From positions 3,265,231-3,329,230 of the forward strand of contig OY781533.1 of assembly GCA_963677015.1 (NCBI GenBank): a DNA stretch of 64,000 nucleotides. Direction: 5' to 3'. Both the position numbers and the translations under genes were made by a program. Position 1 is the first letter of the stretch. Every line of letters begins with the position of its first letter. Below the pieces are notes generated by a model. That model was not told the origin of the DNA. It saw nothing but the letters and a program-made list of their open reading frames with translations, and ran no database searches. Below are positions 29,715 through 54,814 of the stretch, piece after piece. This DNA is from Planctomycetota bacterium (GTDB lineage Bacteria > Planctomycetota > SZUA-567).

Positions 29715-29766
29715 ATGCTCAGCATTATACCCTCACTCCGAAGATTTCAGCGTCAACGCGTCAACC

Positions 29767-32700
29767 TTATTCAATATTTTCAAGTTTCTCACGTGCTTCC
29801 TTTTTCAGTTCCGGAGTGCTCCGTTCCGCCTGTTCCGCATTCAAGTATGCTTTCTTCGCTTCTGAACGAACCTTTTTCCCACTCCAGGCATCTCCAAGAC
29901 GCATATATAAACTTGGTTCGAGTCGGAAAAGAACCGGATTCTTACGCAAAACCTCAATCGTCTTATCAAATTTACCAAATTTATTATATGCCGTAGTACA
30001 GGTATCAAGGAGCATAAGATCTTCCGGATACAGCTTGAGAGCCTTATCCGCTTCTGCAATTATATCAGATTCCGACACCTGCTTTGAATGCAGACTGGCC
30101 CAGATATAGTTATTAAGAAGATGTTTCTCATCTGGAACAAGCTCCAGCCCACGCTTATAGATCAGCTGAGCCATATCCGGCTTCTGTGCCTCATCAGCCA
30201 TAATTCCCAGAGCCATAAGTGTTCTTGGTGTAAAATTGAACTTACTCAGCCCCTTAACAACATATTCATCATCCGAAGCAGTTGACTGCGGATCTTTTAT
30301 TATAAGCTCAACTATTCTGAACTGTATTTTAGGGGAACTGGAATAAGGTTTGAGCTTATCAATTGCCTCCTGAGTCTTATTCTCGGCTGCCAGAATCTGT
30401 GACTCAAGAATAAGCCGGTCATTCTGCCCGATATCTTTGGCCTGTCTGAGCGCCTCAAATGCAGCTTCAGGTTTATTCTGCTGCAAGAACAGCATTACCC
30501 GGGCATGCTCAAATAAAGCATTTGCCTTACCGGTCTTCACACCAACCGCTGTAATCTTTGCAGCCTCGTCCAAACGTCCAAGCCGTACCAGAATATCAAT
30601 CTTCTGCTGTAAAAACAACGGCAGATCAGGGCGTATCTGCAAACACAGGTTTATCGTATCAAGTGCTTTCTCTGCTTCATTCTGACCAAGCTGACACCGG
30701 CTAAGCAAAAATAAGGCATCAATATTTCTAGGATATTTATTCAAGACATCATCAAGCATGAGCTCAGCAGAAGCATTATTGCCCGTGACTATATCAACAT
30801 TAGCAATAATTATCTTCGGACGCACCAGCTCAGGAGATATTTTCAATGCTCTTTCGGCAATAAACTTCGCCTGCTGATACTGATTATGCTTGAGCAGAAT
30901 AGATGCCAGCTCGACATACGCACGTATCAGCTTCGGATTATCATCTATCGCCTGCTGGAACTGTTTTGCAGCGTCTTCCTCACGCCCCTTAAGCGCCAAC
31001 AGCAGCCCATACTCAACCCGCCACTGCCCCTTATCAACCGGGGTGCCTTCTACCTCGGAGAACAGCTCCAAAGCCTTATCATGCTCTCCCAAACCATAAA
31101 GAGCCCGCGCTTTATAAGTCGCATCAATATTTTTTTCATTTACAATATCCAATACCCCATTAAACATTGCCAACTGCAGCATCGCTTCGGCCATAACACT
31201 GTTTACACGGGCTTCATAGGTTGGCTCAACACCTTTAGCCAGCAACTTCTCAAACACATCCAGAGCCGCCTGAGCATTACCTTCTTCCAAATTGAGCTCG
31301 CCCTTGCCAAGCATGATATCATCACTCTGCCCATACTTCTTTTCCAGCACGGTCTGCGCCCCTTTACTGATTTCAGGGAACCCTGCCGGATAAGCAACAT
31401 CACGCAGCAGCATCAGAGTCTTTTTTGATATCATATGCCTGTTATGCATACGCCGGATAAGCTCAAAACTGGCAAGATACTTCTTATCAGCCGCCAGCAC
31501 TTCAGCCAGATGCTCAAGCAGATACCGCCCGGAACCTATCGTCTTATTGGCTCTGGCCGCCAGCGAATAATCCTTTATCGACTCTTCATAATTCTTTATA
31601 TCAGCATTATACCCTGCCTGTGTTAGCAGAACCACTACATTTTTACCAAGAATATCCTCCGCCGTAACCAGTTTATCTGAAGCACCGCTCTTACCCTCCA
31701 GACGGTCTATAAAATACTGGGTCAGGTTTCTTTCACCCTCATAGAATCTGTCCTTGCCTGATGCAAAGAGCAGCAGCTTGTCCAACCCGGACTTATCTTT
31801 CTGAGTATAGAGAATCGGCGCCAGAAATAACCGGGCCTGATGCGCAGTACGGTTACTTCCAAGCTCGGAAAGTTCCGCATCAAAATACTTATGTATCTTA
31901 CTGAGTTCCTCCAGAAACTCTTCACTGTCATGAGAATTCTCAGCCGCGATACGATTAAAATCCTGAGCTATTAATTCACTGAAGAGTGAAAGTTCAAAGA
32001 TATCATTCTGATCCGCATCCATAACATCTCTGGTACGGGGGCTGAGCTTATTCAATAACGGCTTGAGTGCCGGATCATGTTTGAGTTTATCTATCACATC
32101 TTCAGCAGACACAATGTTATCCGCAGCAAAACGGCTGGGATGTGAAATCTTCTCAAGGTATTCTTTGGCCTTATCTAATTCATTATTCGCAAAGAGAATA
32201 ATCGCATGTGACAGCACTACAAAATCCGAAGCTCCGTTTTCCCTGGTATACGTTGTAAACAGGGTCTTTTCCTTATTCGGTTCAGCTTCAATAGCATATA
32301 GATTTGCCAGTATTATTTCACCGCCATCCCCGAGATAATTCTTTGCCTGCGCCTCCTCCAGCACCTGTATGGCCTTGACCGGTTCACGCAGCGCCAGAAA
32401 ATTTCTGGCTGTATATTCATAAATTGCCGGATGAGGATCATTAGTAATGAGCCAGTTGAAATATCCTTCCGCCTGTTCATACTTCTCCAGCTGATAATAA
32501 TAAAGCGCATAAAGCTTCTGGCGCAGGCTTTCCTCATCTATCTGACCGATAAGTTCAAGTGTGCGCTTTCGCTGTTCGAACTTTGGCAGAATAGAAGTGG
32601 CAACAAGTGAAAAAAGCACTTTTGGCTCCCTGACACCACTGCCCCAAATCTTTTCCAGAATCTGATTAGCCTCACTCTTCTTACCGGCTTTAATAGCAGC

Positions 32701-32961
32701 ATCTGCCGCTTTCTTCATCAGAGTCATATTATCAGGATCTTTACTGCTGGCTGCTTTTATAGAGCGAAAGGCTTTAAAGTTATCCCCCATACTGGAATAA
32801 CTGAAATACTCCTTCATAAGCTCGTCTTTGGATTTATTGACTCCATACTCAGAATTACCCCCACGTCCGGTAAATTTGTAGTATCCATACAAAGCGATCA
32901 CCAGAATAATTACGAAAATAGCAATCGCCACAACAAATTTTAATCTGAATGATTTCTGCAT
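29767..32961 (-). CDS. Large TPR-repeat protein (PEP-CTERM system PrsT-like)
   Basis: 1064 aa. N-terminal TM/signal anchor, then many 34-aa TPR-like units (for example AEKALDTINLCLQIRPDLPLFL, YQQAKFIAERALKISPELV). It lies between the priming transferase and the exosortase, as in PEP-CTERM EPS loci. Confidence 0.75.
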   Translation of the reverse strand: MQKSFRLKFVVAIAIFVIILVIALYGYYKFTGRGGNSEYGVNKSKDELMKEYFSYSSMGDNFKAFRSIKAASSKDPDNMTLMKKAADAAIKAGKKSEANQILEKIWGSGVREPKVLFSLVATSILPKFEQRKRTLELIGQIDEESLRQKLYALYYYQLEKYEQAEGYFNWLITNDPHPAIYEYTARNFLALREPVKAIQVLEEAQAKNYLGDGGEIILANLYAIEAEPNKEKTLFTTYTRENGASDFVVLSHAIILFANNELDKAKEYLEKISHPSRFAADNIVSAEDVIDKLKHDPALKPLLNKLSPRTRDVMDADQNDIFELSLFSELIAQDFNRIAAENSHDSEEFLEELSKIHKYFDAELSELGSNRTAHQARLFLAPILYTQKDKSGLDKLLLFASGKDRFYEGERNLTQYFIDRLEGKSGASDKLVTAEDILGKNVVVLLTQAGYNADIKNYEESIKDYSLAARANKTIGSGRYLLEHLAEVLAADKKYLASFELIRRMHNRHMISKKTLMLLRDVAYPAGFPEISKGAQTVLEKKYGQSDDIMLGKGELNLEEGNAQAALDVFEKLLAKGVEPTYEARVNSVMAEAMLQLAMFNGVLDIVNEKNIDATYKARALYGLGEHDKALELFSEVEGTPVDKGQWRVEYGLLLALKGREEDAAKQFQQAIDDNPKLIRAYVELASILLKHNQYQQAKFIAERALKISPELVRPKIIIANVDIVTGNNASAELMLDDVLNKYPRNIDALFLLSRCQLGQNEAEKALDTINLCLQIRPDLPLFLQQKIDILVRLGRLDEAAKITAVGVKTGKANALFEHARVMLFLQQNKPEAAFEALRQAKDIGQNDRLILESQILAAENKTQEAIDKLKPYSSSPKIQFRIVELIIKDPQSTASDDEYVVKGLSKFNFTPRTLMALGIMADEAQKPDMAQLIYKRGLELVPDEKHLLNNYIWASLHSKQVSESDIIAEADKALKLYPEDLMLLDTCTTAYNKFGKFDKTIEVLRKNPVLFRLEPSLYMRLGDAWSGKKVRSEAKKAYLNAEQAERSTPELKKEAREKLENIE

Positions 32962-33017
32962 AATGCTCTATCCCGTTATCCAATTAATTTTTTAAAACCA
33001 CAGGGTTGAAACCCCGG

Positions 33018-34427
33018 TCAATATGCATTTTTACCCAGCAGCACAACAACAATGGTCTTGATGATAATATCAATATCAAGCGAAATATTCCACTCACGTA
33101 TATAACGCACATCCAGCTCCACCCGCTTCTCCATCTGCTCCAGATCTTTGGTTTCGCCACGATAACCATTTATCTGCGCCAGACCGGTGATTCCGGGTTT
33201 AATCTTATGGCGCATCATATAGCCGCTTATGAGTTTACGGTACTCCTCATTATGCGCCACCGCATGCGGGCGCGGACCGACAATACTCATACGTCCCTGC
33301 AGCACATTTATAAACTGTGGAATTTCATCCAGAGAAGTTTTTCGCAGAAACCGACCTACAGGAGTTATTCTGTCATCATCTTTGGTTGCCTGTACTACTT
33401 TAGGACCATCCTCACAGACATTCATAGTCCGGAATTTCCAAATCTTAATAACATCACCGTTTATCCCATACCTCTGCTGCTTAAAGATAACCGGACCTCT
33501 GCTGGTCAACTTGATAATCACGGCAATCACCGCCAAAAGCGGCAGTAACAGAGGGAGCATACCAATAGTGATAACCAGATCTTCAATCCGCTTAATAAAT
33601 GTATTAATTCCAAAAAACGGGGTATCGAAAATTTCAATCAGAGGTATCTTGCCATAAACAGAAAGATCCCCCTGTATAAGCTCGAATATAAATGAATCAG
33701 GAACAATATACACCGAGACAGTTGTATTCTTAAGACTGTTTACAAGACTTTTAACCCGCTTCTCAGCCTTGAACGGCAGAGTAATAAATAGTACATCAAA
33801 TTTGCTGTTCATTGCATCATCAAGCATATCAGAGAATCGCCCGAGATGTTCAAGGTCGGTAAATGGTATCTCGGGCAGACGCCCGGTAGCTCTATCATCA
33901 TAGATCCCATTTATTATTAACCCTTTACTGTATTCATCATCCTTTATCTGTCTTATAAGATCAAAAGCGAAATTATTCAGACCGGCCACCGCCACTTTGA
34001 CCTGATACCGCCCGGCAATATGCAATGTACTGATACAATACCGCCAGAGGAAATCAACAAGATACAGACCAATAACGGTGGTGCAAAACCAGATTGAAAG
34101 GATAACACGGGAATGTTCTGCTGTATTCTTACGTAAAAAGGCCACAAAAAGCGTCAGCATAAATGCCAGAGCCCAACAGCTGAAAAGCTTGACCTTATCC
34201 TCCCGCGCAGAATTCTTGGAAAATCTGTTGAACAGCTCAAAGTAATTTCCAAGAAAGATATATAGCAGACTGGCAGCCAGCCCGGTTATCGCATACTCCT
34301 CATCCCAAGAATCATCATATCCCCAGGCACTAAGAGCCAAAACCACCGAAATAAGGATAAAATCAACAACAGGTAATAATACCGCAATTTTAGGGTCTTT
34401 AGAAAAATAAAATTCTTTTTTAGGCAT
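33018..34427 (-). CDS. Undecaprenyl-phosphate sugar phosphotransferase (exopolysaccharide priming enzyme, WcaJ/EpsB type)
   Basis: 469 aa. Four or five N-terminal TM helices and a central NAD-like linker. The C-terminal bacterial sugar-transferase domain has GPVIFKQQRYGING, RITPVGRFLRKTSLDEIPQFINVLQGRMSIVGPRP and KPGITGLAQINGYRGE. Confidence 0.88.
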   Translation of the reverse strand: MPKKEFYFSKDPKIAVLLPVVDFILISVVLALSAWGYDDSWDEEYAITGLAASLLYIFLGNYFELFNRFSKNSAREDKVKLFSCWALAFMLTLFVAFLRKNTAEHSRVILSIWFCTTVIGLYLVDFLWRYCISTLHIAGRYQVKVAVAGLNNFAFDLIRQIKDDEYSKGLIINGIYDDRATGRLPEIPFTDLEHLGRFSDMLDDAMNSKFDVLFITLPFKAEKRVKSLVNSLKNTTVSVYIVPDSFIFELIQGDLSVYGKIPLIEIFDTPFFGINTFIKRIEDLVITIGMLPLLLPLLAVIAVIIKLTSRGPVIFKQQRYGINGDVIKIWKFRTMNVCEDGPKVVQATKDDDRITPVGRFLRKTSLDEIPQFINVLQGRMSIVGPRPHAVAHNEEYRKLISGYMMRHKIKPGITGLAQINGYRGETKDLEQMEKRVELDVRYIREWNISLDIDIIIKTIVVVLLGKNAY

Positions 34428-34815
34428 ATAACCTCAATACCAGCATAAAAGCCATCAAATCAATATAACATTCTTTCTGTATTTGACTATACATTTTTTC
34501 AGCAGTACAGCAAATTAAAAACCTGTTAAATAGTCGAATATAGACATTATTAATGTAAAAAAACATATTATAATATAACACTCTCTATAAAAATTTTCAT
34601 AAAAGTAATTTTACTTTACACAATCCCCATTGTCGCGTTTTTGCCAATTTTCTGATATATATTTTCAGCTACATTTCGAATAAATACCTAAATTAATAAA
34701 GGTTTAGAAGCAATTACCGACAAAATAATATTGACAGTAAAAAAAATTAACGCTATAATTAACAATTAGGAAATTATGTTAAATATTGTATGCTTCATTA
34801 TATAAGGAGCTGAAG

Positions 34816-35946
34816 ATGATAAAATTACGAACCCTAATACTAGGTCTAATTCTGGCTTTTGTAGCCTGCCTCGGAACGACAGCACAGGCGGCCAGCTACA
34901 CAATGACAATCATTGATCTGGGTGTCATAGGTGACGATACTTCCAGTTATGCGACATCTATAAATAATTCCGGAGTTGTTGTCGGAACCTCTGTAGATGC
35001 GGACGGTAGCACCACAGCCTTCACCTGGGGTCAGTGGTGGCCAAATAACGGCAGTATGCTCAGCCTTAAAGATGGTAATAAAAATACCTATGCTACCGCT
35101 ATAGACAGCAGCGGTCGTATTTTAGGTGGCAGTACCAGTGACAATGGAGATTACCGCGTCGGCACTTGGACTTCATATAATGTCAACAGTAACCTGAATC
35201 AGCTGAGTACCGGCAAAACTACGGCCACAGCTGCGTACAGTATCAATGACAACGGTCAGATTCTTGCGTCTGATGGTGACCCAACCCAGACTATGGTTTA
35301 CAGCATTTGGGGCGGACACAACCCGGTTAAAGTCGGCGGCGATATGGAAATAAAATATGCCTCCGATATAAATGACAGTGGACAGGTAATTGGAGAGACC
35401 GAACTCGGCACCCCTTATATCTGGAACATGTACAACGACAGTACCGAACTTATATCATCAATCAAAGGTTCAGCTACTGATATTAACGACTCAGGTGAAG
35501 TAGTCGGTACCAAAACAGCTGATGTTACCGAATCCGGAGAAGTAATTGATAGCGGTGAAGAACAGGCTTATCTGTATAAAGATGGAGAAGTTATCGAACT
35601 TGGCTATGTCGGTGTCGGTACAAGTTCCGAAGCGTACGCCATCAATGAGGAAGGTGTTATTGTCGGTACTTCAAATGGAAACGCCTTTGTCTGGAGTGCT
35701 GACAGCGGCATGCTCAACCTCAATGACCTGCTGCCGGACGGCAGTGAATGGACAAACCTGTCTGTTGCCAGTGATATAAATGACCTGGGGCAGATAGTCG
35801 GCTGGGGAACAATAAACGGCGAGACTCATGCTTTTCTGATCTCTGAAATTGTTGCCGCACCCGAACCAAAGATAATCTTTATAGTTCTGCTGATTGTCTG
35901 TGTCGCTCTCTTCAGAGTTTTTCAGGAGACCGGCGGCAAAGCCTGA
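34816..35946 (+). CDS. HAF-family extracellular repeat protein with PEP-CTERM sorting signal
   Basis: Signal peptide MIKLRTLILGLILAFVACLGTTAQA. Repeated IN(D/N)SG(Q/E)(V/I)VG units (>=8), terminal GETHAFLIS (HAF motif), then AAPEP plus a hydrophobic helix plus FR (PEP-CTERM). Start set at ATG 34816 (AAGGAG 6 nt upstream). Confidence 0.8.
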   Translation: MIKLRTLILGLILAFVACLGTTAQAASYTMTIIDLGVIGDDTSSYATSINNSGVVVGTSVDADGSTTAFTWGQWWPNNGSMLSLKDGNKNTYATAIDSSGRILGGSTSDNGDYRVGTWTSYNVNSNLNQLSTGKTTATAAYSINDNGQILASDGDPTQTMVYSIWGGHNPVKVGGDMEIKYASDINDSGQVIGETELGTPYIWNMYNDSTELISSIKGSATDINDSGEVVGTKTADVTESGEVIDSGEEQAYLYKDGEVIELGYVGVGTSSEAYAINEEGVIVGTSNGNAFVWSADSGMLNLNDLLPDGSEWTNLSVASDINDLGQIVGWGTINGETHAFLISEIVAAPEPKIIFIVLLIVCVALFRVFQETGGKA

Positions 35947-35981
35947 ATCTAAGTTATTCTCTAAAATTTCATTATTTTACC

Positions 35982-36020
35982 AGTTGAGACCGAATATTTT
36001 TCAGGTCTCAACTTTTTTTT
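35982..36020 (+). terminator. Rho-independent terminator
   Basis: Perfect 10-bp stem AGTTGAGACC / GGTCTCAACT with a 12-nt loop, followed by a T8 run, 36 nt after the HAF-protein stop. Confidence 0.8.
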
Positions 36021-36204
36021 ATGCCGCAGACAGTAATCATAATATATAACGGGCAGCATATCCGCTCATATCTTACTTTCAAAATCACCGATATATCTAT
36101 ACTGAGACATGAAAAATATTGTATAAAACATCAAGCATATACAGTTATTTTGCCGATAAACTGGTGTTAAATATTTTTGCGTAACCCATAATGAAAGTAA
36201 AAAG

Positions 36205-37518
36205 ATGAAATTCAAAGAATTCGCACGCATGCATCTGACATTAAATATCTCGGTTTTATCAGCATTCCTGCTATCCTTTATCCTCTTTACTTCCTGCAAA
36301 GATGACAATGAATATACCGGCTCCGGCACCACAGCCGCAACTGTTGAAACTCAGGACATCAGGCATGATGATAAAGTACGGGAAGAACTTTTCACTGAAA
36401 TACCGGAAGCGCAAAACGCTGACGGCTCCACCACTGTGAAAAATCCTAAAAAAAAGGACAGCCCTCACCTGCGAATCTTTGAGGGTAAGAAAAAGACAAT
36501 AAGTCCTGAAGAACAGGCAAAAATTGACGAAGAACTGACCGAACTCAGAAAAAAATACAACCCAACCTATCGTATCACCCGCGGTGATCAGCTAGAAATT
36601 TCCATTCCTTTCGAACCGGACAGCCGGCAGCTGGTAAATGTACGCCCTGACGGCACCCTCGGTTATCTCTACGGAGTAGAAGTTAAAGCGGCCGGGCTGA
36701 CCTATCCCGAGCTTAAAACAAAGATTGAAGACCAATTGGCAAAGTATTACTACAAACCAAAAGTTGACATCAATGGAAAAACCTACTCAGGCAGTCAGGT
36801 ATATATCATGGGACCGATAAAAGCCCCTGGAAGCCATATTATACAGAATAACACCAAACTGCTCGATTTTCTGTCAATGGCCGGTGTACTCAGTCAGTTA
36901 CCGAGTGCGAATCTGCTTTCATATCGAAATTCACAGACCAATGATGTTGTAGATCTCAGTAATTCATATATGATGCGTGACGGCAAAATTCTTCCGATAA
37001 ATTTTGAAAAGCTGCTGCTCAACCGGGAAATGAAGTATAACATTTACGTACGTGCCAATGATTTTCTCTTTTTCCCAAGTTCATATCTCACAGATATCAG
37101 TAAGACAGTTTACGTCATAGGAGCGGTAAACACCCCTCGTACTTATCAGTATACAACAACAACAACCTTCATGGCGGCAATAGCAGCTGCCGGCGGAGTT
37201 GATAAATACCGGGCAGACAGAAACCATCTCGTTGTTATCCGTAAAAGCGCCGATAAAATTATAAATGTAAATTATCTCAATATTATCAACGGCGTAGAGC
37301 CGGATATTGAGCTTGAAGATCGAGATATAATCTATGTTCCAGAACGCGGACTATACTCGGCATCACATTGGGCCACCACGGTCATCAGCGAAATTATCGC
37401 ACCGCTGCAGGCAATTATTCAGGCCAGCTCAGCCAGCAAAGCGATCAATATGCAGAATTATAATCCAGCATCAGACTTCGGACCTGCAGACTCATGGATG
37501 AAGGATGAAAGCAACTAA
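36205..37518 (+). CDS. Polysaccharide export protein (Wza/Poly_export plus SLBB type), probable lipoprotein
   Basis: 437 aa. Signal with LFTSC. Poly_export signature YRITRGDQLEISIPFEPD....VNVRPDGTLGYLYGVEVKAAGLTYPELKTKIEDQL. Later SLBB-like segments (VYIMGPIKAPGSH, VYVIGAVNTPRTY). Confidence 0.8.
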   Translation: MKFKEFARMHLTLNISVLSAFLLSFILFTSCKDDNEYTGSGTTAATVETQDIRHDDKVREELFTEIPEAQNADGSTTVKNPKKKDSPHLRIFEGKKKTISPEEQAKIDEELTELRKKYNPTYRITRGDQLEISIPFEPDSRQLVNVRPDGTLGYLYGVEVKAAGLTYPELKTKIEDQLAKYYYKPKVDINGKTYSGSQVYIMGPIKAPGSHIIQNNTKLLDFLSMAGVLSQLPSANLLSYRNSQTNDVVDLSNSYMMRDGKILPINFEKLLLNREMKYNIYVRANDFLFFPSSYLTDISKTVYVIGAVNTPRTYQYTTTTTFMAAIAAAGGVDKYRADRNHLVVIRKSADKIINVNYLNIINGVEPDIELEDRDIIYVPERGLYSASHWATTVISEIIAPLQAIIQASSASKAINMQNYNPASDFGPADSWMKDESN

Positions 37519-39274: not shown

Positions 39275-41098
39275 TCAGCCGTTATCCACAATCTCACGCG
39301 CCTTGGTTAGTATTACTGCTGCCGCCTCCTCATATTCACGCATCAGTTTCTCTTCATCAGCCAAAGCCTCGGCACTGGCCAGCTCATAATAATATCTGAA
39401 TTTTGGCTCCGTACCTGACGGACGCAGCAGTATCCAGCTCTTATCTGCAAATATAAGCTTGAGCCCATCAATAATATTGATAGCAGCAATCTCTTTGGCA
39501 ACACCGCCGACACTAACGCTGTCACCGACCTTATACAGCTTATGCTGCAATACCGCAACAACATTCGCCTTATATTCCTGCCAGGCTTCAATACTGACAC
39601 CTTTGACATCAGCCCCAGCCTTAGCAGGATAAAAGTATCCATAGCGTTCACGCAGTTTATTATACTGCTCAGATATATTAGTATCGGTACTCTTCATTGC
39701 CTCAAGTGCCAGCAGAAATCCCGCCAGAGCACACTTCTCCAGGGTATGTCCGACACAGGTAATACCATCAGATTCCTCAAAAGCAAGTATAACCTTACCC
39801 TGACTGAGCGGCTCGCGGAAATTTTTAAAACCTACCGCCATCTCAAAAATTTCCTTACCCTCACGCTTAGCTATTTCCAACGCGAAATCACTTGAAGGAG
39901 CAGTGCTGGCAAGTCCGCCGTCCATGCCTCTGCCCAGCATACTCGCATAAGCGATAGCACCAAAACGATTCATATCAATATCCATAGCCGCGTCAGCAAA
40001 GCGTATTCTGTCAGCATCCGGATCAAGAGCAACCGCCAGAGACAACCGGCGATTCATTACTGACAATTCAGCAATAAGCGGTGCCTGATTGACCGCACTC
40101 GGCTCTGGTTTTACCCCATGAAAACTGTAATCAGTAGCCACATGCAGGCGTTTAAAAGACCCGGCCGCGGTCAATTCCTCTACCACCTCCGCACCAAGCA
40201 CAGCCTCTACATAACCCCGCGAAGAACCATGCATGAAATCCACTATCAAGGCAATCTCATCCTTCTTCGCTTTGAGCCATTCACGCAGTGCCGACAAATC
40301 AAAGACCTTGCTTTTATTCATAACAAAATCAGTAAAAATCTGTTTTGCGTCAATATCCTTGTACATATCCGCAGCGGGTTCAACCGTTACCGGTGAAAAC
40401 TCTCCCCCCTGCATATAAGCATTGGCCTTCTCCTCAATAAGTACTGTCAGTTCCGGGCCGGCAGGTCCGCCGTCAGCAGGATTAAACTTCAGACCTGCAT
40501 ACTCCATAGGATTATGTGACGGTGTGAAATTTATCGACCCGGCAGCGGAGAGCTCAGTCACCAGCGCCGAACCGACGCCGGTTGGGCACTCACCGGCAAT
40601 ATACATCTTAACTCCTGCTGCCGCCAGCTCACGCTTGGCGATTCCGATAAACACATCTCCCATAAACCGGTTATCACGAAATATTACAATTCCATGCTTC
40701 TGAACTTCCTCAAAACTCTGATACTTATTTACCTCAAGGAATTTAGCCGTCTGCATCATTTCAACAATACCGCGCACAACCTTGGCAACATTGAGTGTCG
40801 TAAAATCTTCACCAATAACACCACGCCAGCCGGAAGTTCCGAAAACCACAGTAGTCTGAACAGTTGAAACAGCAGCTTTCTCTCCCTGAAATTCACGCAC
40901 CATATCAACAATTCGCCGACAGGCATAAACCGTTGCATCGGTAGCCTCTGGACGGTTATAATAACAGCCGGCGCTCTTCGCCACTTCCCAGAAAGTATCA
41001 CTTTCAAGGTAGCCGTCGATCTCCGCAACTACTTCCTGATCCCGTATTGCCTCGCGCACCGCCTGTGTCAGCTCTTCTTTAAATTCAGCCTTGCTCAT
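39275..41098 (-). CDS. Phosphoglucomutase/phosphomannomutase family protein (alpha-D-phosphohexomutase)
   Basis: Active-site serine loop GSINFTPSHNPMEYAGLK and metal-binding loop ALDPDADR. The domain IV sugar-phosphate loop shows up as LLRPSGTEPKFRYY. Start set at MSKAEFKEEL (ATG 41098). Confidence 0.85.
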   Translation of the reverse strand: MSKAEFKEELTQAVREAIRDQEVVAEIDGYLESDTFWEVAKSAGCYYNRPEATDATVYACRRIVDMVREFQGEKAAVSTVQTTVVFGTSGWRGVIGEDFTTLNVAKVVRGIVEMMQTAKFLEVNKYQSFEEVQKHGIVIFRDNRFMGDVFIGIAKRELAAAGVKMYIAGECPTGVGSALVTELSAAGSINFTPSHNPMEYAGLKFNPADGGPAGPELTVLIEEKANAYMQGGEFSPVTVEPAADMYKDIDAKQIFTDFVMNKSKVFDLSALREWLKAKKDEIALIVDFMHGSSRGYVEAVLGAEVVEELTAAGSFKRLHVATDYSFHGVKPEPSAVNQAPLIAELSVMNRRLSLAVALDPDADRIRFADAAMDIDMNRFGAIAYASMLGRGMDGGLASTAPSSDFALEIAKREGKEIFEMAVGFKNFREPLSQGKVILAFEESDGITCVGHTLEKCALAGFLLALEAMKSTDTNISEQYNKLRERYGYFYPAKAGADVKGVSIEAWQEYKANVVAVLQHKLYKVGDSVSVGGVAKEIAAINIIDGLKLIFADKSWILLRPSGTEPKFRYYYELASAEALADEEKLMREYEEAAAVILTKAREIVDNG

Positions 41099-41238: not shown

Positions 41239-44223
41239 TTACTCACGCCCCAGCCTGCTGAGAAGTTCCAGACGCTCACTCTGGGCTTTCTCATACAACT
41301 CGGTGAGTTCTTCAACCTTCTGCAGCTGCTCATTAATAAATGCATCCTTATCCGCTGCGACCTTTTTCAATTCTTGTTCCTTGTCATTCAGCAACGTTTT
41401 ATACCTTTGAACCTCAGCCATATTATCCACACTTCCAAGAATGGCCCGTTCTTCCTCATGCGCCCGGAATTCACCGATAAGAGTACGTGCTTTCATCAGC
41501 TCCCAACCGAGCTCTTTATTACTGGCCGTAAGTTCTTCGAGATGACTCTCCCGCTCACGCGCCTTGCGCAGTTCAACATCAAGACGCCGATGTTCAATCT
41601 GTTCCTCCATAAAGGCCTTATTCAATTCATCAATTTCCAACGCGACTCTATCAGCAAGCTCCGCTTTCTCTTCAAGTTCATTTACCTTGGTAACAAGCTC
41701 CTTATAACCTTCAATACGTTCACGAAGCTCATCATTCTCCGCTGTCAGTACAGCCGTTTTTTTCTCGGATTTTTCCAGAAGCCCGCGAACATCATCCACT
41801 TCAGAATGCAGATCACTTAAAAGTTCCGATTCCGCCTGCAGCTCTTCAATTCTCGAAGTTAACCGCTTGACCTCCACAGTACGCTCACGCAACTCCCACT
41901 GCGTACTTTTAAGCTCGTCACAGGTACTGCTGAACTTCGCCTGCAACTCCTGAGCATTACTGGTAATAACCTCCTTCTCACGCGCTGTCTGTTCTTTGAG
42001 TGCTGAATAATCCTGATGCACAGCTTCACACTCTTTACGTAACTTATCAAGAGCCATATCCTTCTCAAGATTCTCAAGCTGCACCTGATCTCGCATTCCG
42101 GCGAGTTCATCTTTAAGAGCGGCAAGTTCCTCTTTAAGCACCTTTATCTGCGCATCCCGACTCTCAATACCCTTTATTTTATCGGCTATATCAAGCTGAA
42201 GCTGCCCGACCTGATCCTCAAACGCTCCTAATTCCATAACCCGTTCCAGAGCAAGCTCCTTCAGTGAAGTTTCATTATCAAGCTTCCACTGACAGTCCTT
42301 AAGCATTGTTTCAGCCTCATTCAAACGCTGCTGAACCGCTTCCGATTTATTGGCGTATGACTCCATTATATCCGCCTTTTCATCACTGAGGATTTTATTC
42401 TGCTCTTCAAGCTTAACCAGCTGCTCCTGCAACTGCTGTCGCTCTTTATCAGCGTCGTCCTTCGCTGCTTTATACTGCTCTTCAAGTTCACGAAGCGTAT
42501 TCTTATACTCGGTAATTCTACTTTCAAGAAGGGTCACCGTCTCACGGCTCTCACTCAGCTCCGATTTAAGCTCTTCATCCGCACCCAACACAGATCCCAA
42601 CTCCTTGTTCCGATTCTCCAGCTGACCCTGAACTTCCTTGAGCTGCTTGTTCAGATCCAACACCTGCTGCTGAAGACCGGAATTCTGCGCTCTTTCCTCA
42701 GTCAGCGCCTCCTCCAGCTCTCTGGTCTTGGCCTGAAACAATTCATGCTCTTTGGTCTGACCATCCTTCAGAAGCTGCTCCAGCTTGGCGCGTTCCTCTT
42801 CAATCCGCTCCAGTTCACTGAGTGCCTTACGTACCGAAACCAACTCTGCCTCAGCCTCTTCCCGCCCCTCACGTTCACGCTGAATGCCAACATGCTCCGC
42901 CTCAATAAGCGCCGCCTGCCCTGCTTCAAGCTCTTCACAGCGATTTTCAAGAGAAGTTACAACCGAATTAAGATTATCCACCATCCTGCCGCTTGCTCCA
43001 AGCTTATCGGTGAGATCAGCCGCCTGTTTCTCAACCTCTCTCTTGGCCTCCGCCAGTTTCTGTTCCCGTCCGGACGCGGCATCACGTTCCTTCTCCATTC
43101 TCAGCGAATACTCTCCGGCAATACGTGAACTGTCCAAAGCTTTATCACGTTCTCCTATCAGATCATTAACCCGACCTTCAAGATCACCGATACGAGCACG
43201 AGCCAGGGAATTTTCTTCCTCTGCTTTATGCAGCCCATTCAGAGCCTCCTGCGCATCACGTAGAGATACATTCTTTTTATTTTCACTATCCTCAAGCCGG
43301 CGGTGCAGCTCCGCGCGTTCATTCTCCGACTGCTCAAGATTACGCCGCAAATCCGTCAGTTCCGAGGCAAATCTCTCCACCTCGGCATTACGTCCGCCGA
43401 GCTCATCTCTAAGCTGCTGCAGGATATTTTCCAGTCTTTCCCGTTCAATATTCGCCGCAGCCAATTCCTTATCACGTACCTCCCGGTTCTCATCAACTTC
43501 ATGGGAAATACTCTCCACCCGCTGCTGGTTTACAGCAAGAGCCTCCGTCTTTTCCGCATTTTCACGGCGAAGTTCCGCAATTCTCGTTTTAATAGATTCC
43601 GCCTCATCCTTGGCACTCTGAGCCTCTTCGCGTAATCTCGCCGACTCCTCTTCAGCTCTGGCAATAGCTTCACGGTTGCTTCTGGATTCTTCTTTAGCTT
43701 TCAAAAGTGCTTCCCGGTGTCGCGCTACCTCCTGCTGCAGATCAATACTGCTGATCGCAGCACCACGCCGCTGCTCTGGAACCGGTGGTGTTACCGGATC
43801 AATACCTGAAACTCTCTGTTCCGGCAGCGGCTTCTCAGGCCTGCTGGCTTCATAATCCCGGCAAAGATCATACATTTGCGGAACATCAATATTACCGTCA
43901 TAAAATATTCTGGCGACACCAAGTCTCTTCACATCATCAATAATCTGCCGATCATCTGAATTCAGAGATACAACCAGCGGGATACCGCGAGATATCTTCT
44001 TAATATAATTCACCAGTGAAGCTCCATCATAATTTGGCAGGTTTGGAGCAAGAAGAATAGCGGAAAATTCCGCAGTTTCAAGACGATGTTCAACTTCAGC
44101 AATACTGGCAACAGGATTGATATGAAGATCGTGATAATCAGAAAAGAGAAAATCCGCAACTATTTTACTCATTCCCCGGTTACAGTCTTCGACCAGCAGA
44201 ATTCTATATTTTTTATCGCCCAT
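41239..44223 (-). CDS. Pseudo-receiver domain protein with ~800-aa coiled coil (FrzS-like architecture)
   Basis: N-terminal CheY-like fold (KYRILLVEDC ... FSAILLAPNLPNYDG ... PLVVSLNS). Ala sits at the phospho-acceptor position and Asp sits where the conserved Lys should be. The rest is E/K/L/R/Q-rich heptad-type sequence to the C-terminus. Start set at ATG 44223 (GGAG 7 nt upstream). Confidence 0.72.
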   Translation of the reverse strand: MGDKKYRILLVEDCNRGMSKIVADFLFSDYHDLHINPVASIAEVEHRLETAEFSAILLAPNLPNYDGASLVNYIKKISRGIPLVVSLNSDDRQIIDDVKRLGVARIFYDGNIDVPQMYDLCRDYEASRPEKPLPEQRVSGIDPVTPPVPEQRRGAAISSIDLQQEVARHREALLKAKEESRSNREAIARAEEESARLREEAQSAKDEAESIKTRIAELRRENAEKTEALAVNQQRVESISHEVDENREVRDKELAAANIERERLENILQQLRDELGGRNAEVERFASELTDLRRNLEQSENERAELHRRLEDSENKKNVSLRDAQEALNGLHKAEEENSLARARIGDLEGRVNDLIGERDKALDSSRIAGEYSLRMEKERDAASGREQKLAEAKREVEKQAADLTDKLGASGRMVDNLNSVVTSLENRCEELEAGQAALIEAEHVGIQREREGREEAEAELVSVRKALSELERIEEERAKLEQLLKDGQTKEHELFQAKTRELEEALTEERAQNSGLQQQVLDLNKQLKEVQGQLENRNKELGSVLGADEELKSELSESRETVTLLESRITEYKNTLRELEEQYKAAKDDADKERQQLQEQLVKLEEQNKILSDEKADIMESYANKSEAVQQRLNEAETMLKDCQWKLDNETSLKELALERVMELGAFEDQVGQLQLDIADKIKGIESRDAQIKVLKEELAALKDELAGMRDQVQLENLEKDMALDKLRKECEAVHQDYSALKEQTAREKEVITSNAQELQAKFSSTCDELKSTQWELRERTVEVKRLTSRIEELQAESELLSDLHSEVDDVRGLLEKSEKKTAVLTAENDELRERIEGYKELVTKVNELEEKAELADRVALEIDELNKAFMEEQIEHRRLDVELRKARERESHLEELTASNKELGWELMKARTLIGEFRAHEEERAILGSVDNMAEVQRYKTLLNDKEQELKKVAADKDAFINEQLQKVEELTELYEKAQSERLELLSRLGRE

Positions 44224-44439
44224 AATATCTCCACAAGAGCCAGAAAATTTTACACACAAAATCCAAACATATTGCATAGCAGTATGTTAGCTATTATAAT
44301 GCAATTATATAGCATTCTAATTTTACTGTAGATATAATTTTTGTCAATGTAGATTTTAGTCTGCAGCAACTACAGGATATCCAATTACCGGTTATTGATC
44401 AGCACCTGATGAATAAACCTGATATAGAAGAGAGAAATA

Positions 44440-45153: not shown

Positions 45154-48100
45154 ATGCTTACGGAAAAAGTCACCCAGAAAATATCCACTCTCTCTACCGA
45201 TCTGGCAGTAGGAATTTCACTGAACGACCCGCAATCATGGCAGGAACTTGCTGAATTATGTAATGATATAAATGTCGAACTTATAGCCCAGGCTGAATTT
45301 ATTCTCTCGGATATTGTCTCCCGCGCCAAAGACATACTTGAGCATCTGGCCAACAATATGCCGACAAACATCGATACCGAGGTATCACACCTGCTCAACA
45401 TGGTATCAATCCTCAGCAGCGCTGCCGAAGATCAGACCTATGATCAGGCGCTTGCCAGAGAAATAGTTGCCAACAGCGATCTCTTTCTTTCCGATCTGGA
45501 AGATATTGCAGAATCCAACAAGATAGAGCCGGCAATCGAAATTGATGAAGAATTCATGCAGGAAATTGAAGGGCGTATAGACCATCTGGAATCACTTCTT
45601 TTCAATGTTCTGGAGGATGGATGTTTTGACACCGAGGGCTGTAAGGAGATCTTCCGCGAATTTCACACTCTCAAAGGCGAGGCCGGTATTCTCGGACTTA
45701 CTGCTTTAAGCAGCTACTGGCACGGTGTTGAAGAGGTTATTCAGGATGCCCGATCCGGCAATCTTTTCTTCTCCAGAAATTCTGTGGACATACTGCTGCA
45801 GCTGGTTAAAATCGGCAGAGATCTACTGCGTAATGGAAAATTGAAAAACTCCCAGCAGGAGGAATCACAGGAGGCAATCACACGCCTGAACAATCAGGTC
45901 GAACAGGATAGCGGTGCTACAGAAACTGTAAGCGCACCTCAAAGTTCCGGGCAGACCGCTGAAAACCCGGAGGTATCCGGCAATGATGATTTTTTCATGC
46001 CAACAGCTGATGACGACTCAGCTCCCGACGAAGAAGCAACCGAGGACTACCCGTTCAGTGCTGACAACGCAGAAGAGGATGTTACCGATGACTTCTTCAC
46101 CATGGAACCTGAAGATGAGACAACAGACGCAACTCAAACGGATGAGCATGAACCGGAAGCAATAGTATTCAACGATACGAAGAGCAGTGAACCGGCAATA
46201 CCGGAAGCAGCGCAACCTCCGGTCGAGGCCAGGCCAATCCCAAGTGCCGGCGTGCAGACAGAGCAGGCTGTTCTGAAAAATGAAACTGCGCCCGCTGATA
46301 GCGAGATACCAGACTCCGCTCAAAAAGTAAAAGCAAATCCGGTCAGTCAGACGGAAGAAAAAGAGGTTGAAACCTACTCCCTGCGCAATGTGCAGATTGA
46401 GGTAAAAAGACTCGACGAGCTTCTTGATATTGTCAGTGAAGTCTCTCTCATAGGCTCACACCTGCTTACCAATCCGGAGATAAGCGCCATAAACTCAGCA
46501 AATGGTGATCTGCAGGATCTCATGCGCTTCTGCCGCACCCTGAATGATATGGCCAGTTCCTTCCGCATGACTCCGATTGCCCCTCTTTTCCATAGAATAC
46601 AAAGAGCCGCCAATGATGCCGCACGTGCTATTGGAAAACAGGTAAATATGATTCTTGATGGACAGGACACCAAGGTCGACCGCAGTGTTGTGGAACGACT
46701 TAGTGCTGCGCTGATGCATCTGGTGCGTAATGCTGTCGGACATGGTATCGAATCAGCCAGCCGACGCCGTGAACTGAATAAACCTCCTGCCGGAAGGCTG
46801 CATTTGAGCGCGAGGCAGACCGGTGCCGATATTATAATTGAATTCAGTGATGACGGAGCCGGACTTGATATAGAAAAAATTAGAGCCAAAGCCATAAAAA
46901 CCGGCTGCATTACAGAAGATGACAACCGCAAGGATCAGGATATCCTGAATCTTATTTTCTCCAGCGGTTTTTCAACTTCAGAAGCTGTTGACGGCATCTC
47001 TGGGCGTGGCGTTGGCATGTCAATTGTTCAGGAATCAATGGACTCACTCCGCGGACGTATAGAAATTGAGAACCATCCGGGTGAAGGCGCCACCTTCAGA
47101 TTGCGCTTCCCGGTTGCACTCGCAGCGGTTGAAGCCCTGCTGGTAACCCTGGGAGACAATATAATTGCCATTCCGGTTCAGTCGGTACGCGAAACCTTCA
47201 AACTGGATAAGAAACAGCTTTCAACAGTTGAAGGCCGGGGAAATATGGTAAATGTCAGAGGCATTATAGTCCCGCTGATTAAAATGTCTGATTTTCTTGG
47301 AATTGACGGTAGAAATGATATTGAAGAAGGAGTGCTCATCCTTGTAGACGAAGGCGACAAACTCGCTGCTATTCTAGTTGATACAGTCATGGAAACCAGA
47401 CAGGTGGTTATCCGCCAGCTCGAAGGCCAGCTTAGAGACATCCCTGAAATAACCGGTTGCGCGCTACTCAGCGACAGACAGATATCACTGGTGCTTGATA
47501 TCAGACGGGTTATCGAAAATTCATATATTGCCTCTGGAAACGCCTACTCCGATGCCGGGGCAATTAAAGCCGCTTCTGAACGCAAAGTTGAAGTCGTAAC
47601 TATCGGCTCCAATGCTGTAGGTATAATTGACTTTGTCGTCAAATCATACAAACCTGACGGCAGTATAAAGAATCATAAATTTGCTATCAATGCCTTTAAG
47701 ACCAAAGAATTTGTACCGGTGACAACACTTACTCCAGTACCGGACATGCCCAAGGGTTTCGCCGGTATGCTACTGTTGCGTGATCAGACAATTCCGGTAA
47801 TGTCACTAGATATGCTGCTGGGTCTGCATAAAGACGGCAAACGCCATAGCGAATTTGAAAAAATCATCATCATCTGTGAATTTTCAGGGGTAACGGTTGG
47901 CTTTATTGTTACCGAGGTAAACAGTGTAAGCTATATTTCCTGGAATAATATTTCTCCGCCGCCGCAAGGAGGCCCACTTATCTCACTGAACTATGTTATC
48001 GGCACAATACAGATGTCTTCTATCGATACAGCAAGCCATCACAATCAGAACACCAAAAATTCTGATGAGGTCGCGCTGCTGCTGGATTTTGAACAGATAG

Positions 48101-48564
48101 TGCAGCAGGTAATCAAGCTCTATGATGATATAGGTGACAGTCTCGCAGAAATAACTTTGCGCAAGGATATTACCAAGATACTTCTGGTCGAGGATTCACT
48201 GCTTATCAGACGTGAAACTGCCAAAGCACTCAAGAACCATAATATCGAAGTTATTGAAGCCGGAGACGGCAAGGAAGCTCAGGAGATACTTGAAAATCTT
48301 TATCAGCAGTCAAAAGCTGACCAGAAGAGCATATTCAATTATATAGATCTTATCTTATCTGATATTGAAATGCCGCGAATGGACGGATACAGTCTTACTC
48401 AATATGTTAAGAGTCATCAGGATCTCAGACTTCTGCCGGTACTGCTGCACAGTTCGCTGACCAATGACACCATTGTCAACAGAGCCAAGGAAGTACATGC
48501 GGACGGATTTGTACCCAAATGTGACCCTGAAAAACTGGTCGAACACCTGAGGAAATTTATCTGA
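45154..48564 (+). CDS. cheA: Hybrid chemotaxis histidine kinase CheA with extra CheW-like domain and C-terminal receiver (CheA-CheV type fusion)
   Basis: 1136 aa. Hpt FREFHTLKGEAGILGL; an acidic ~150-aa linker; dimerisation/HATPase (HLVRNAVGHGIE, SDDGAGLD, GRGVGMSIV); P5 CheW-like (LLVTLGDNIIAIPVQSV); a second CheW-like domain (FAINAFKTKEFVP...GMLLLRDQTIPVMSL); and a canonical REC domain (ILLVEDS...LILSDIEMPRMDG...HSS...VPK). Confidence 0.88.
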   Translation: MLTEKVTQKISTLSTDLAVGISLNDPQSWQELAELCNDINVELIAQAEFILSDIVSRAKDILEHLANNMPTNIDTEVSHLLNMVSILSSAAEDQTYDQALAREIVANSDLFLSDLEDIAESNKIEPAIEIDEEFMQEIEGRIDHLESLLFNVLEDGCFDTEGCKEIFREFHTLKGEAGILGLTALSSYWHGVEEVIQDARSGNLFFSRNSVDILLQLVKIGRDLLRNGKLKNSQQEESQEAITRLNNQVEQDSGATETVSAPQSSGQTAENPEVSGNDDFFMPTADDDSAPDEEATEDYPFSADNAEEDVTDDFFTMEPEDETTDATQTDEHEPEAIVFNDTKSSEPAIPEAAQPPVEARPIPSAGVQTEQAVLKNETAPADSEIPDSAQKVKANPVSQTEEKEVETYSLRNVQIEVKRLDELLDIVSEVSLIGSHLLTNPEISAINSANGDLQDLMRFCRTLNDMASSFRMTPIAPLFHRIQRAANDAARAIGKQVNMILDGQDTKVDRSVVERLSAALMHLVRNAVGHGIESASRRRELNKPPAGRLHLSARQTGADIIIEFSDDGAGLDIEKIRAKAIKTGCITEDDNRKDQDILNLIFSSGFSTSEAVDGISGRGVGMSIVQESMDSLRGRIEIENHPGEGATFRLRFPVALAAVEALLVTLGDNIIAIPVQSVRETFKLDKKQLSTVEGRGNMVNVRGIIVPLIKMSDFLGIDGRNDIEEGVLILVDEGDKLAAILVDTVMETRQVVIRQLEGQLRDIPEITGCALLSDRQISLVLDIRRVIENSYIASGNAYSDAGAIKAASERKVEVVTIGSNAVGIIDFVVKSYKPDGSIKNHKFAINAFKTKEFVPVTTLTPVPDMPKGFAGMLLLRDQTIPVMSLDMLLGLHKDGKRHSEFEKIIIICEFSGVTVGFIVTEVNSVSYISWNNISPPPQGGPLISLNYVIGTIQMSSIDTASHHNQNTKNSDEVALLLDFEQIVQQVIKLYDDIGDSLAEITLRKDITKILLVEDSLLIRRETAKALKNHNIEVIEAGDGKEAQEILENLYQQSKADQKSIFNYIDLILSDIEMPRMDGYSLTQYVKSHQDLRLLPVLLHSSLTNDTIVNRAKEVHADGFVPKCDPEKLVEHLRKFI

Positions 48565-54337: not shown

Positions 54338-54814
54338 ATGATATTTAAACGGTCACTAGCCCTGCTCGCAATTACAGCGATACTGCTGCTCACTGGCTGC
54401 ACCGCAACACCGGAAACAAATACCGTTTCAACACTTCCTGAACCGGAAGTTGCCAAAGCGGAAGCGAAAGAAGCGCTGAGAAACTGGCAGACACTCCTGG
54501 AGACCGGTCAGAATGCCGAATTTATCAAGGCAAGTATGCCGGAAGAAGTTTACCAGATGTCAGTTACAGAAGACGGAGCGCTCAAGGAAGAGGTTGTTGA
54601 TAAATTAAGAGCCTTTGCTCCCAGGATTGTTAACGCCCTCAATGAGGCACAGTTTATTCAGCCTGAGATATCAGGTGATAATGTAGTCTTTACATATAAT
54701 GATATACATAGCTCAAACGGTTTCTTTAAAAATGAAAAAATCTATCTGAGCAAGAGCAACGGTCGCTGGTACTTCAACGGGCAGATGCTCCAGCAGGTCG
54801 CCGAACCGCAATAG
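54338..54814 (+). CDS. Hypothetical lipoprotein
   Basis: 158 aa. Signal plus lipobox MIFKRSLALLAITAILLLTGC. No recognisable domain. Inserted between fusA and tuf. Confidence 0.5.
   Translation: MIFKRSLALLAITAILLLTGCTATPETNTVSTLPEPEVAKAEAKEALRNWQTLLETGQNAEFIKASMPEEVYQMSVTEDGALKEEVVDKLRAFAPRIVNALNEAQFIQPEISGDNVVFTYNDIHSSNGFFKNEKIYLSKSNGRWYFNGQMLQQVAEPQ

Follow-up and report, generated by a model that had tools for sequence, protein, structure and literature searches.

In this work we describe a protein of 994 amino acids (aa) encoded within a stretch of 64,000 nucleotides from a Planctomycetota bacterium (assembly GCA_963677015.1, contig OY781533.1, positions 3,265,231 to 3,329,230), hereafter called the window, in which an N-terminal receiver fold, predicted to be incapable of phosphotransfer, is followed by a coiled-coil rod of about 830 aa. 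The protein belongs to a small family, lacking both a name and a curated entry and traced so far to Planctomycetota only, which, as judged from sequence, is defined by a pseudo-receiver signature together with an invariant rod motif, LExRCxELEAGQxALIEAEH. Proteins of this kind, combining a pseudo-receiver with a coiled-coil scaffold, were already known, and sequence comparisons indicate that the Planctomycetota family is an independent invention, derived from a different receiver lineage. By analogy with the Myxococcus proteins FrzS and AglZ, we consider it on balance probable, and hold with modest confidence, that the protein consists of a docking domain independent of phospho-aspartate, mounted on a self-associating coiled-coil scaffold.

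The open reading frame (ORF) is present as first annotated and lies on the minus strand; translation, structural model and heptad statistics all agree on a receiver fold followed by a long heptad-like helix. The longest frame spans positions 41239-44277 (-), but the ATG at 44223, within the same frame of the ORF list, is the likely start, because a GGAG lies 7 nt upstream of it, a promoter-like site, putative and recognised by consensus match only, is found further upstream, and the homologues all begin with MG[DE] at the equivalent site, the full-length ones sharing the same start methionine. The product is made up of three parts: the receiver-fold domain (aa 1-127), a proline-rich linker of 37 aa (aa 128-164) and the rod (aa 165-994).

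The pseudo-receiver domain

Assignment of the N-terminal domain to the CheY-like (beta-alpha)5 fold is based on profile matches, on a structural model and on structural comparison. The window protein scores 20.2 bits against the Pfam receiver profile PF00072, under the cut-off of 30.2, while the same profile matches all 12 of the family members scanned, with a best E-value of 4e-9; in PDB sequence searches with the N-terminal domain, the top matches are receivers only. An AlphaFold2 (AF2) run on the single N-terminal sequence was poor, with a predicted local distance difference test (pLDDT) value of 61 and helix alpha1 mispredicted as a strand, and was replaced by a run based on a 22-row alignment, containing 15 family members and the 7 nearest canonical receivers. 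The resulting model (pLDDT 84.7, predicted template modelling score, pTM, 0.78) features the full (beta-alpha)5 topology, with beta1 at residues 6-11, alpha1 at 20-26, beta2 at 33-38, alpha2 at 41-50, beta3 at 55-58, alpha3 at 67-77, beta4 at 83-87, alpha4 at 92-101, beta5 at 105-108 and alpha5 at 114-127. Foldseek comparison of this model with the PDB returned 359 matches at E<=1e-3; the 50 top ones listed are all receiver domains, with TM-scores of 0.6-0.75, and include PorX, WspR, PleD, FixJ and CheY. No enzymatic or DNA-binding domain was found, either in the 994-aa protein or in the family, in any of the libraries scanned (Pfam, NCBIfam, PDB sequence search).

The residues on which phosphotransfer depends are missing from this fold. 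All the alignments made (HMMER, MAFFT to CheY, nearest canonical receivers) place Ala59 at the end of beta3, in the position of the phospho-acceptor Asp57 of CheY, which is occupied in 13 family members by A, A, A, A, G, S, S, S, S, A, S, S and I, and never by Asp. Similarly, at the end of beta5, Asp109 takes the position of CheY Lys109, both in the CheY alignment and in that with the nearest canonical receivers, and the same 13 members carry here D, D, D, D, A, Y, Y, N, Y, P, S, P and R, never Lys. Both substitutions had been recognised in the initial annotation, along with their predicted consequence, the impossibility of canonical phosphorylation, and on all three counts it proves to be right. 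It had also regarded the Thr/Ser position at the end of beta4 as kept, within the string VVSLNS, and this has to be corrected: when the VVLTG of the nearest canonical receivers is set against VVSLN, Leu87 falls at the position of CheY Thr87, in agreement with the CheY alignment and with the end of beta4 at residue 87 in the AF2 model, and Leu or Ile is found at this position across the 13 members. An alternative HMMER alignment would put Ser86 there, but residue 86 is variable in the family (S, F, V, Y, I or L). Asp, Thr and Lys are thus all lost.

Ile106 occupies the position of CheY Tyr106, and the acidic pair Asp12-Asp13, which in CheY serves to bind Mg2+, reads Glu12-Asp13 in the window protein, Glu12 being invariant in the 13 members and position 13 being Asp, Asn or His. 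Directly after the pair, Cys14 is again invariant, and the domain features a one-residue insertion in comparison with canonical receivers. The signature of the family can be written as R-[IV]-L-L-[VI]-E-[DNH]-C-x-[RKT]-G-[MI]-S, or, more loosely, as R-I-L-L-x-E-x-C-x-x-G-M-S.

As far as alignments and model indicate, aa 1-127 form a receiver fold devoid of the phospho-acceptor Asp and of the Thr and Lys residues, predicted to be unable to work as a phospho-switch, and fall within the class of pseudo-receivers as defined in PMC12632262, namely receivers by sequence and fold that lack the phosphotransfer residues. Like the other members of that class, the domain is recognised computationally, and its altered residues are concentrated in two loops, beta3-alpha3 and beta4-alpha4, in keeping with the definition given there. 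The replacements themselves are different: in that survey Glu is common at the Asp position, Ala at the Thr position and Arg at the Lys position (PMC12632262), whereas the new family features a small residue (A, S or G) at the first, Leu or Ile at the second and nothing conserved at the third, in addition to its one-residue insertion and to the invariant Cys right after the acidic pair.

The coiled-coil rod and the extent of the family

The last proline of the protein is residue 149, and the 845 residues that follow it are proline-free. The rod is rich in E (18.9%), L (13.1%), A (10.0%), R (8.9%) and K (7.8%), and the mean hydrophobic contrast at its a and d positions is 0.465, against 0.254 +/- 0.119 when these residues are shuffled, 44% of its 28-residue windows lying above the shuffled 95th percentile. 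The continuous E/K/R/L/Q heptad-like sequence initially annotated is therefore real as far as the heptad pattern is concerned, but its extent, given as about 870 aa, is actually about 830 aa. No Pfam, NCBIfam or PDB entry spans the rod; when the full-length profile was compared with the sequences of the PDB, the matches were trivial coiled-coil ones only, to keratin, phage gp26 and TSG101, those to keratin and gp26 having E-values of 0.002-0.007.

Conservation within the rod is concentrated in a single block. Of the 27 positions that do not vary in the alignment of 13 members, 20 fall within the 34 residues of what we call the hallmark motif, with consensus L-E-x-R-C-x-E-L-E-A-G-Q-x-A-L-I-E-A-E-H...R-E...E. 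Its conservation is contiguous, so that every helix face is conserved, and coincides with a dip in the heptad score. The motif contains both a Cys (Cys429) and a His (His444), within the invariant LExRCxELEAGQxALIEAEH. At the DNA level the homologous loci differ from the window at 16-26 of 78 positions compared within the motif, only L002, the closest one, whose protein is 83% identical, differing at as few as 4; since these differences fall mostly at third codon positions, the constraint acts on the peptide. A nucleic-acid element, which was considered as an explanation for the motif, was rejected on the same grounds, the loci varying mainly at third positions while the peptide stays fixed.

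Three further islands are conserved, more weakly than the hallmark. The first ends with LKDC-x-W-x-L at aa 641-648, whose core, LKDC[EQ]W[QK]L, is retained in several distant members; the second reads QIEHRRL...GWELMKARTLIGE, with TEQ..RR and K[ED]LEW cores recognisable in distant members; the third lies near the C-terminus and features the core ELTELYEKAQ-x-ERLELL at aa 971-988.

The length of the rod evolves quickly. The shortest member has 312 aa and the longest 1235 aa, segments of about 40-55 residues have recently been duplicated, in frame and in tandem, in the rods of L006 (10001-13684) and L021 (6267-9974), and in distant relatives the linker and the first quarter of the rod are replaced by an acidic low-complexity stretch of 150-250 aa. 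The L006 rod carries AKLEAELEALRVEVEQDKQRAVTLETELEQVRGESGSLEESR twice, while the L021 rod repeats LQ.D.E..QRELGDKESYIAELQGQI..LNERISELDGQLADLGR.AEENTG. A role of the rod as a fixed-length spacer or ruler was rejected in view of this range of lengths and of the two duplications.

The family is small, whichever way it is searched. A word-indexed search of 5.8 billion proteins returned five full-length clusters, at 100, 83, 53, 52 and 44% identity, and a genome scan five loci, all in metagenome-assembled genomes (MAGs) labelled Planctomycetota, three of them on chromosomes of 3.4-3.9 Mb; at five Planctomycetota MAG loci the homologues are full-length and colinear, at 44-83% identity. Exhaustive HMMER comparison of the full-length profile with 1.84 billion cluster representatives gave 27 matches at E<=1e-3, 12 of them at E<=1e-10, and it is from this search that the distant members came, the word-indexed search with the N-terminal profile yielding one fragment only. 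Scans of metagenome contigs for the full family and for the distant members selected 149 and 600 pattern stretches, respectively, none of which was confirmed by tblastn. The shorter relatives (P0009-P0016, 312-770 aa) have in common the pseudo-receiver, the acidic low-complexity linker and some rod motifs; more generally, what the distant members, 312 to 1235 aa long, have retained is limited to the pseudo-receiver, the hallmark and, in most cases, the C-terminal motif. The 1235-aa member was found beside a homologue of the phosphohexomutase gene described below, and P0016, the only named distant member, is annotated as 'hypothetical protein / CheY-like chemotaxis protein [Planctomycetota bacterium]'.

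Resemblance to FrzS, AglZ and other coiled-coil scaffolds

The protein had initially been annotated as FrzS-like. This description is correct for the architecture: as in FrzS and AglZ, an N-terminal receiver fold without Asp phosphorylation is followed by an extended C-terminal coiled coil, Ala is found, as in FrzS, at the position of CheY Asp57, and the genome also encodes a CheA-receiver hybrid kinase. It is not correct for the descent of the domain. The receiver profile of the family was compared by hhalign with the FrzS receiver, in a sequence identical to PDB 2gkg_A, and scored 32.8 (probability 70%, 17% identity), against 53.1 (probability 95.8%) for E. coli CheY and 68-112 (probability 97-99%) for seven ordinary receivers of the LLDLxLPDSxG type; FrzS is also absent from the 50 top Foldseek matches listed and from the PDB sequence matches. 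The pattern of losses is the opposite one as well. The FrzS pseudo-receiver has Ala53 at the Asp57 position, Ser10 at the Asp13 position and Gly88 at the Thr87 position, and retains Lys105 and the functionally essential Tyr102 (PMC1974792); FrzS thus lacks the acidic pair and keeps Lys and the aromatic switch residue, whereas the new family keeps Glu12 and has lost both of the latter, the equivalent of Tyr102 being I, T, C, A or V and that of Lys105 never Lys. Tyr102 and His92 belong to the output face of FrzS, where both are needed for function. Because FrzS gives the weakest hhalign score, is missing from the top structural matches and features opposite losses, specific homology to FrzS is not supported, and the resemblance is one of design, not of descent. 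Further differences are the lack, in the 994-aa protein, of a degenerate DNA-binding segment of the FrzS type, the hallmark motif, which is specific to the new family, and the host phylum. The rod in the window's own clade is also, presumably, much longer than the FrzS coiled coil.

In overall size the 994-aa protein is closer to AglZ, which is about 1400 aa long and reportedly forms filaments. An exhaustive profile search gave no protein of the size and kind of AglZ above noise, and MglA, MreB and the Agl-Glt gliding machine, with which AglZ acts, have no counterpart seen in the window. AglZ is a paralogue of FrzS, built to the same design, with a CheY-like domain predicted to be non-phosphorylatable and a very long coiled coil (Yang et al. 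2004, cited in PMC9811614).

A long heptad-patterned rod with interruptions is also a feature of DivIVA/Wag31, crescentin and FilP/Scy, and the 994-aa protein possibly self-assembles. In contrast to it, they do not contain a receiver domain, and share no sequence similarity with the new family. DivIVA/Wag31 is functionally linked to a Ser/Thr kinase, while in some relatives of the family the link to such a kinase is a genomic one.

In Myxococcus, FrzS docks to SgmX through its receiver, independently of phosphorylation, and its coiled coil is sufficient for localisation to the pole (PMC1974792, PMC9811614). On this model, the pseudo-receiver described here most likely offers a partner protein a constitutive surface to dock on, as that of FrzS does to SgmX. 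The rod would probably self-associate, forming a parallel dimer or an assembly of higher order, with an extended shape that, if continuous, would exceed 100 nm, and the hallmark, a 34-residue interruption of the heptad pattern, may represent a second, even more strongly conserved site of contact or assembly. The Asp pocket being apparently dead, any regulation would have to come from elsewhere, either from the binding of a partner or, in relatives with a kinase gene upstream, from Ser/Thr phosphorylation.

A number of observations weigh against a passive docking scaffold. The strictly conserved Glu12 and Cys14 adjoin the former active site, and the pocket could still bind a ligand or a metal, or sense the redox state, in which case the domain would be a switch rather than a dock; together with Cys429 and His444 in the rod motif, these residues may leave room for a ligand-, metal- or redox-sensitive switch. 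The length of the rod is not conserved in the family, which makes a role as spacer or ruler unlikely. Dimerisation, filament formation and localisation are all predicted properties, all the organisms are uncultured MAGs, and the conservation of neighbouring genes, described below, could reflect inherited synteny, the mutases being 67-71% identical.

Gene neighbourhood, alternative readings and significance

The genes flanking that of the 994-aa protein are listed in Table 1, along with the features of the protein itself. No terminator-like site was found, by a scan of the window, between the gene and that of the phosphohexomutase downstream, a protein with an N-terminal extension of 85 aa. On the other side, the divergent gene of a TlyA/FtsJ-like methyltransferase, whose match to TlyA is under the curated cut-off and starts at profile position 55, the first 54 positions being unmatched, separates it from the CheA-type hybrid kinase. 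The latter, which the initial annotation had correctly placed about 900 bp away and divergently transcribed, starts at a distance of 931 bp. The receiver of the hybrid itself is canonical, both Asp (LILSDIEMPRMDG) and Lys (FVPK) being kept; no MCP (methyl-accepting chemotaxis protein), CheW, CheB or CheR gene was found near the hybrid in the window.

Two features of the hybrid and of its surroundings deserve mention in their own right. The hybrid contains an acidic low-complexity linker of about 160 aa (aa ~240-400) between Hpt and the kinase core, and a second CheW-like domain after P5. The TlyA-like core lies directly upstream of it on the same strand, an odd partnership, which the window clade shares with L012 and L021.

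Table 1. Features of the 994-aa protein gene and of its neighbours in the window
Feature	Position	Strand	Basis or remarks
Whole gene, 994-aa pseudo-receiver/coiled-coil protein	41239..44223	-	ORF list and translation; stop codon 41239-41241
Promoter-like site (putative), TTGACA-16 nt-TAAAAT	44320..44347	-	consensus scan, 11/12 matches; upstream of the 994-aa gene
Pseudo-receiver domain, aa 1-127	43843..44223	-	translation, Pfam, AF2, Foldseek, alignments
Pro-rich linker, aa 128-164, RPEKPLPEQRVSGIDPVTPPVPEQRRGAAISSIDLQQ	43732..43842	-	7 of the protein's 12 prolines at aa 129-149
Coiled-coil rod, aa 165-994	41242..43731	-	proline-free, E/L/A/R/K-rich, heptad contrast above shuffles
Hallmark motif, aa 425-458, LENRCEELEAGQAALIEAEHVGIQREREGREEAE	42850..42951	-	20/27 invariant residues
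Conserved island, aa 619-648, IMESYANKSEAVQQRLNEAETMLKDCQWKL	42280..42369	-	LKDC-x-W-x-L motif; invariant block in window clade
Conserved island, aa 875-918, QIEHRRLDVELRKARERESHL...NKELGWELMKARTLIGE	41470..41601	-	invariant block in window clade
C-terminal motif, aa 965-992, EQLQKVEELTELYEKAQSERLELLSRLG	41248..41331	-	fourth-highest conservation window, 13-member alignment
Alpha-D-phosphohexomutase, 607 aa, PGM/PMM domains I-IV	39275..41098	-	Pfam, NCBIfam; 140 bp downstream, same strand
TlyA/FtsJ-like 2'-O-methyltransferase core, 185 aa	44440..44997	+	Pfam FtsJ, NCBIfam TlyA subfamily; divergent neighbour
CheA-type hybrid kinase, 1136 aa: Hpt, acidic linker, HATPase_c, two CheW-like, receiver	45154..48564	+	Pfam, NCBIfam

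The window clade is syntenic all the way from the EF-G/EF-Tu genes to an exosortase locus for exopolysaccharide (EPS), so that adjacency within the clade is uninformative, and the comparison has to be made with the other loci. In L021 the order is CheA hybrid, TlyA-like gene, divergent family gene and mutase; L012 is organised in the same way, except that the family gene is preceded by an inserted gene for an FHA Ser/Thr kinase. A CheA gene is missing from L013 (REC-PAS gene, FHA kinase, family gene, mutase), from L014/L015 (TlyA-like gene, then, divergently, FHA kinase, family gene, mutase) and from L011, where the single 1228-aa ORF P0023 (4759-8445) contains a pseudo-receiver of the family type (RVLLVEDCARGMSPTFGQL), an acidic linker, a short coiled coil and a full phosphohexomutase, homologous to the product of the gene downstream in the window. 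The L016 contig begins at the family gene, with a tRNA synthetase gene downstream, and in L017 and L019 the neighbours are unrelated. Counted by lineage, the mutase is downstream in five of nine, plus the one fusion, the TlyA-like gene is present in four of eight (window clade, L021, L012 and L014/L015, always in the same position), and the FHA kinase upstream and the CheA hybrid in three of eight each, the upstream counts being out of eight because of the point at which the L016 contig begins. The mutase is thus the most persistent neighbour, found in the window clade, L021, L012, L013 and L014/L015 with a gap of 24-367 bp. The kinase, of about 448 aa, is encoded on the same strand and immediately upstream (L012 8458-9807, L013 6345-7688, L014 8401-9747), but neither the window clade nor L021 has it at that position. 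The 67-71% identity of the mutases of the relatives to that of the window indicates fairly closely related organisms, so that the shared gene order may simply be inherited and constitutes weak evidence.

An EPS locus of the PEP-CTERM/exosortase type lies on the far side of the mutase, at 21090-37518 and 1.8 kb away from it, with its synteny conserved in the window clade. It includes the genes of a Wzz/AAA_31 chain-length protein (25588-27894), the exosortase EpsH (27921-29714), a 1064-aa protein with tetratricopeptide repeats (TPR; 29767-32961), a sugar transferase (33018-34427), a Poly_export/SLBB protein (36205-37518) and glycosyltransferases.

The neighbourhood suggests two partnerships other than the generic one proposed above. 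The first, already put forward in the initial annotation, is that the protein serves as the polarity or motility output scaffold of the pathway of the divergent CheA hybrid, positioning a motility or secretion machine at the pole, as FrzS and AglZ do downstream of the CheA-CheY hybrid FrzE. We regard this as rather unlikely. The common architecture and the Ala shared with FrzS at the Asp57 position (PMC1974792) are in keeping with it, and so are the hybrids divergently adjacent in the window clade, L021 and L012, which are orthologous (56-59% identity), an MCP gene 6 kb downstream in L021 and the flagellar genes FliS and FliJ on contigs of two relatives. Co-conservation with the hybrid, however, on which the proposal had been made to depend, is only partial: no CheA gene stands beside the family members of L013, L014/L015, L011, L017 and L019, and the mutase and the FHA kinase are neighbours no less persistent than the hybrid. 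The two genes are also always separated by the TlyA-like one and lie on opposite strands, the pseudo-receiver is not of the FrzS lineage and lacks the equivalents of Tyr102 and Lys105, and type IV pilus, gliding and MCP genes, as well as MglA and SgmX-like TPR genes, were looked for within the 64-kb window and not found. Moreover, FrzS itself is not phosphorylated by FrzE, and adjacency to a kinase would thus say little on mechanism.

A partnership in envelope growth, with the protein working with the mutase, and under the FHA kinase in relatives, to tether or regulate at a given cell site the supply of sugar phosphates for cell-wall or EPS synthesis, much as DivIVA/Wag31 under its Ser/Thr kinase, is in our opinion unlikely. 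It would fit the mutase gene lying downstream on the same strand in five lineages, whose loci differ in the genes beyond this core, the interval between the two genes in the window, in which no terminator-like site was found, the kinase gene immediately upstream in L012, L013 and L014/L015, the proximity of the EPS locus and the fusion of P0023, as well as the reported link of FrzS to EPS production in Myxococcus (PMC3158785). Several points speak against it: the mutase is not a neighbour in L016, L017 and L019, neither L021 nor the window clade has the kinase upstream, adjacency of the EPS locus is confined to the latter clade, and the fusion was seen once, in a short-read assembly, in a protein without the hallmark motif. 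In addition, the mutase family is far larger and broader, with at least 1214 clusters at E<=1e-30 from Planctomycetota, Calditrichia, Fibrobacterota and one eukaryotic record, and mostly exists without a protein of the 994-aa type, which it therefore does not need; an obligate partnership was rejected for this reason. 

An extended form of this proposal, which we consider quite unlikely, would make of FHA kinase, pseudo-receiver coiled coil and phosphohexomutase a Planctomycetota-specific module that places the synthesis of envelope precursors at the site of growth or division, the coiled coil acting as a landmark similar to DivIVA/Wag31, and hallmark and Cys14 as a redox- or metal-sensitive assembly switch. 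The triad is complete in some relatives, lacks the kinase in the window, and has its last two members fused in one relative.

It is very improbable, finally, that the protein is a generic structural coiled coil, such as an SMC/Rad50-like arm or an intermediate-filament-like rod, with a fortuitous N-terminal similarity to receivers: its weak NCBIfam matches to SMC, ASRP and Rad50 (27-45 bits), the keratin and gp26 matches and the Pfam score of the window protein taken alone would agree with this, but the SMC/Rad50 matches, which involve rod segments only, are far under the cut-offs of 567-729 bits, no SMC_N or AAA domain, ATPase head halves, hinge or zinc hook is present, so that the SMC/Rad50 version, which the initial annotation had named as a possible refutation, is rejected, and the receiver fold is supported by the Pfam, AF2, Foldseek and hhalign results on the family.

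Other features of the window were also noted. Its first part, 1-12335, is low in G+C (0.29-0.39, against about 0.45 elsewhere), carries genes of type I restriction-modification (HsdS, 1061-2248; HsdM, 4710-6200), of a DnaB-like helicase (8738-10147) and of a tyrosine integrase (10811-12355), the 3' end of the latter ORF overlapping a tRNA-Leu(taa) on the opposite strand (12248-12335), and looks like a genomic island integrated at this tRNA gene. The genes of EF-G and EF-Tu, usually adjacent, are separated here by an ORF of 158 aa (54338-54814, +) with no significant family match, and the relatives L001, L003 and L007 have an ORF of 156-158 aa in the corresponding place. A protein of 1240 aa (58064-61786, -) is unusually multi-sensor, with four periplasmic SBP_bac_3 domains followed by a GGDEF diguanylate cyclase.

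To our knowledge, nearly all the scaffolds made of a pseudo-receiver and a coiled coil described so far come from Myxococcus, in which cell polarity and motility are organised by FrzS and AglZ. Planctomycetota lack FtsZ, many of them bud or grow in a polar fashion, and few of their cytoskeletal or polarity factors are known. The family described here is an annotation-level finding, and its link to chemosensory signalling is supported only in part. The invariant rod motif, and the invariant Cys beside the dead active site, lend themselves well to mutagenesis and to screens for interactions. If the CheA hybrid were the partner of the docking scaffold that we favour, the coupling of a coiled-coil polarity factor to a chemosensory pathway would be seen for a second time, independently of the first; were it instead the mutase or the kinase, the finding would point to a new way to organise the synthesis of the envelope.

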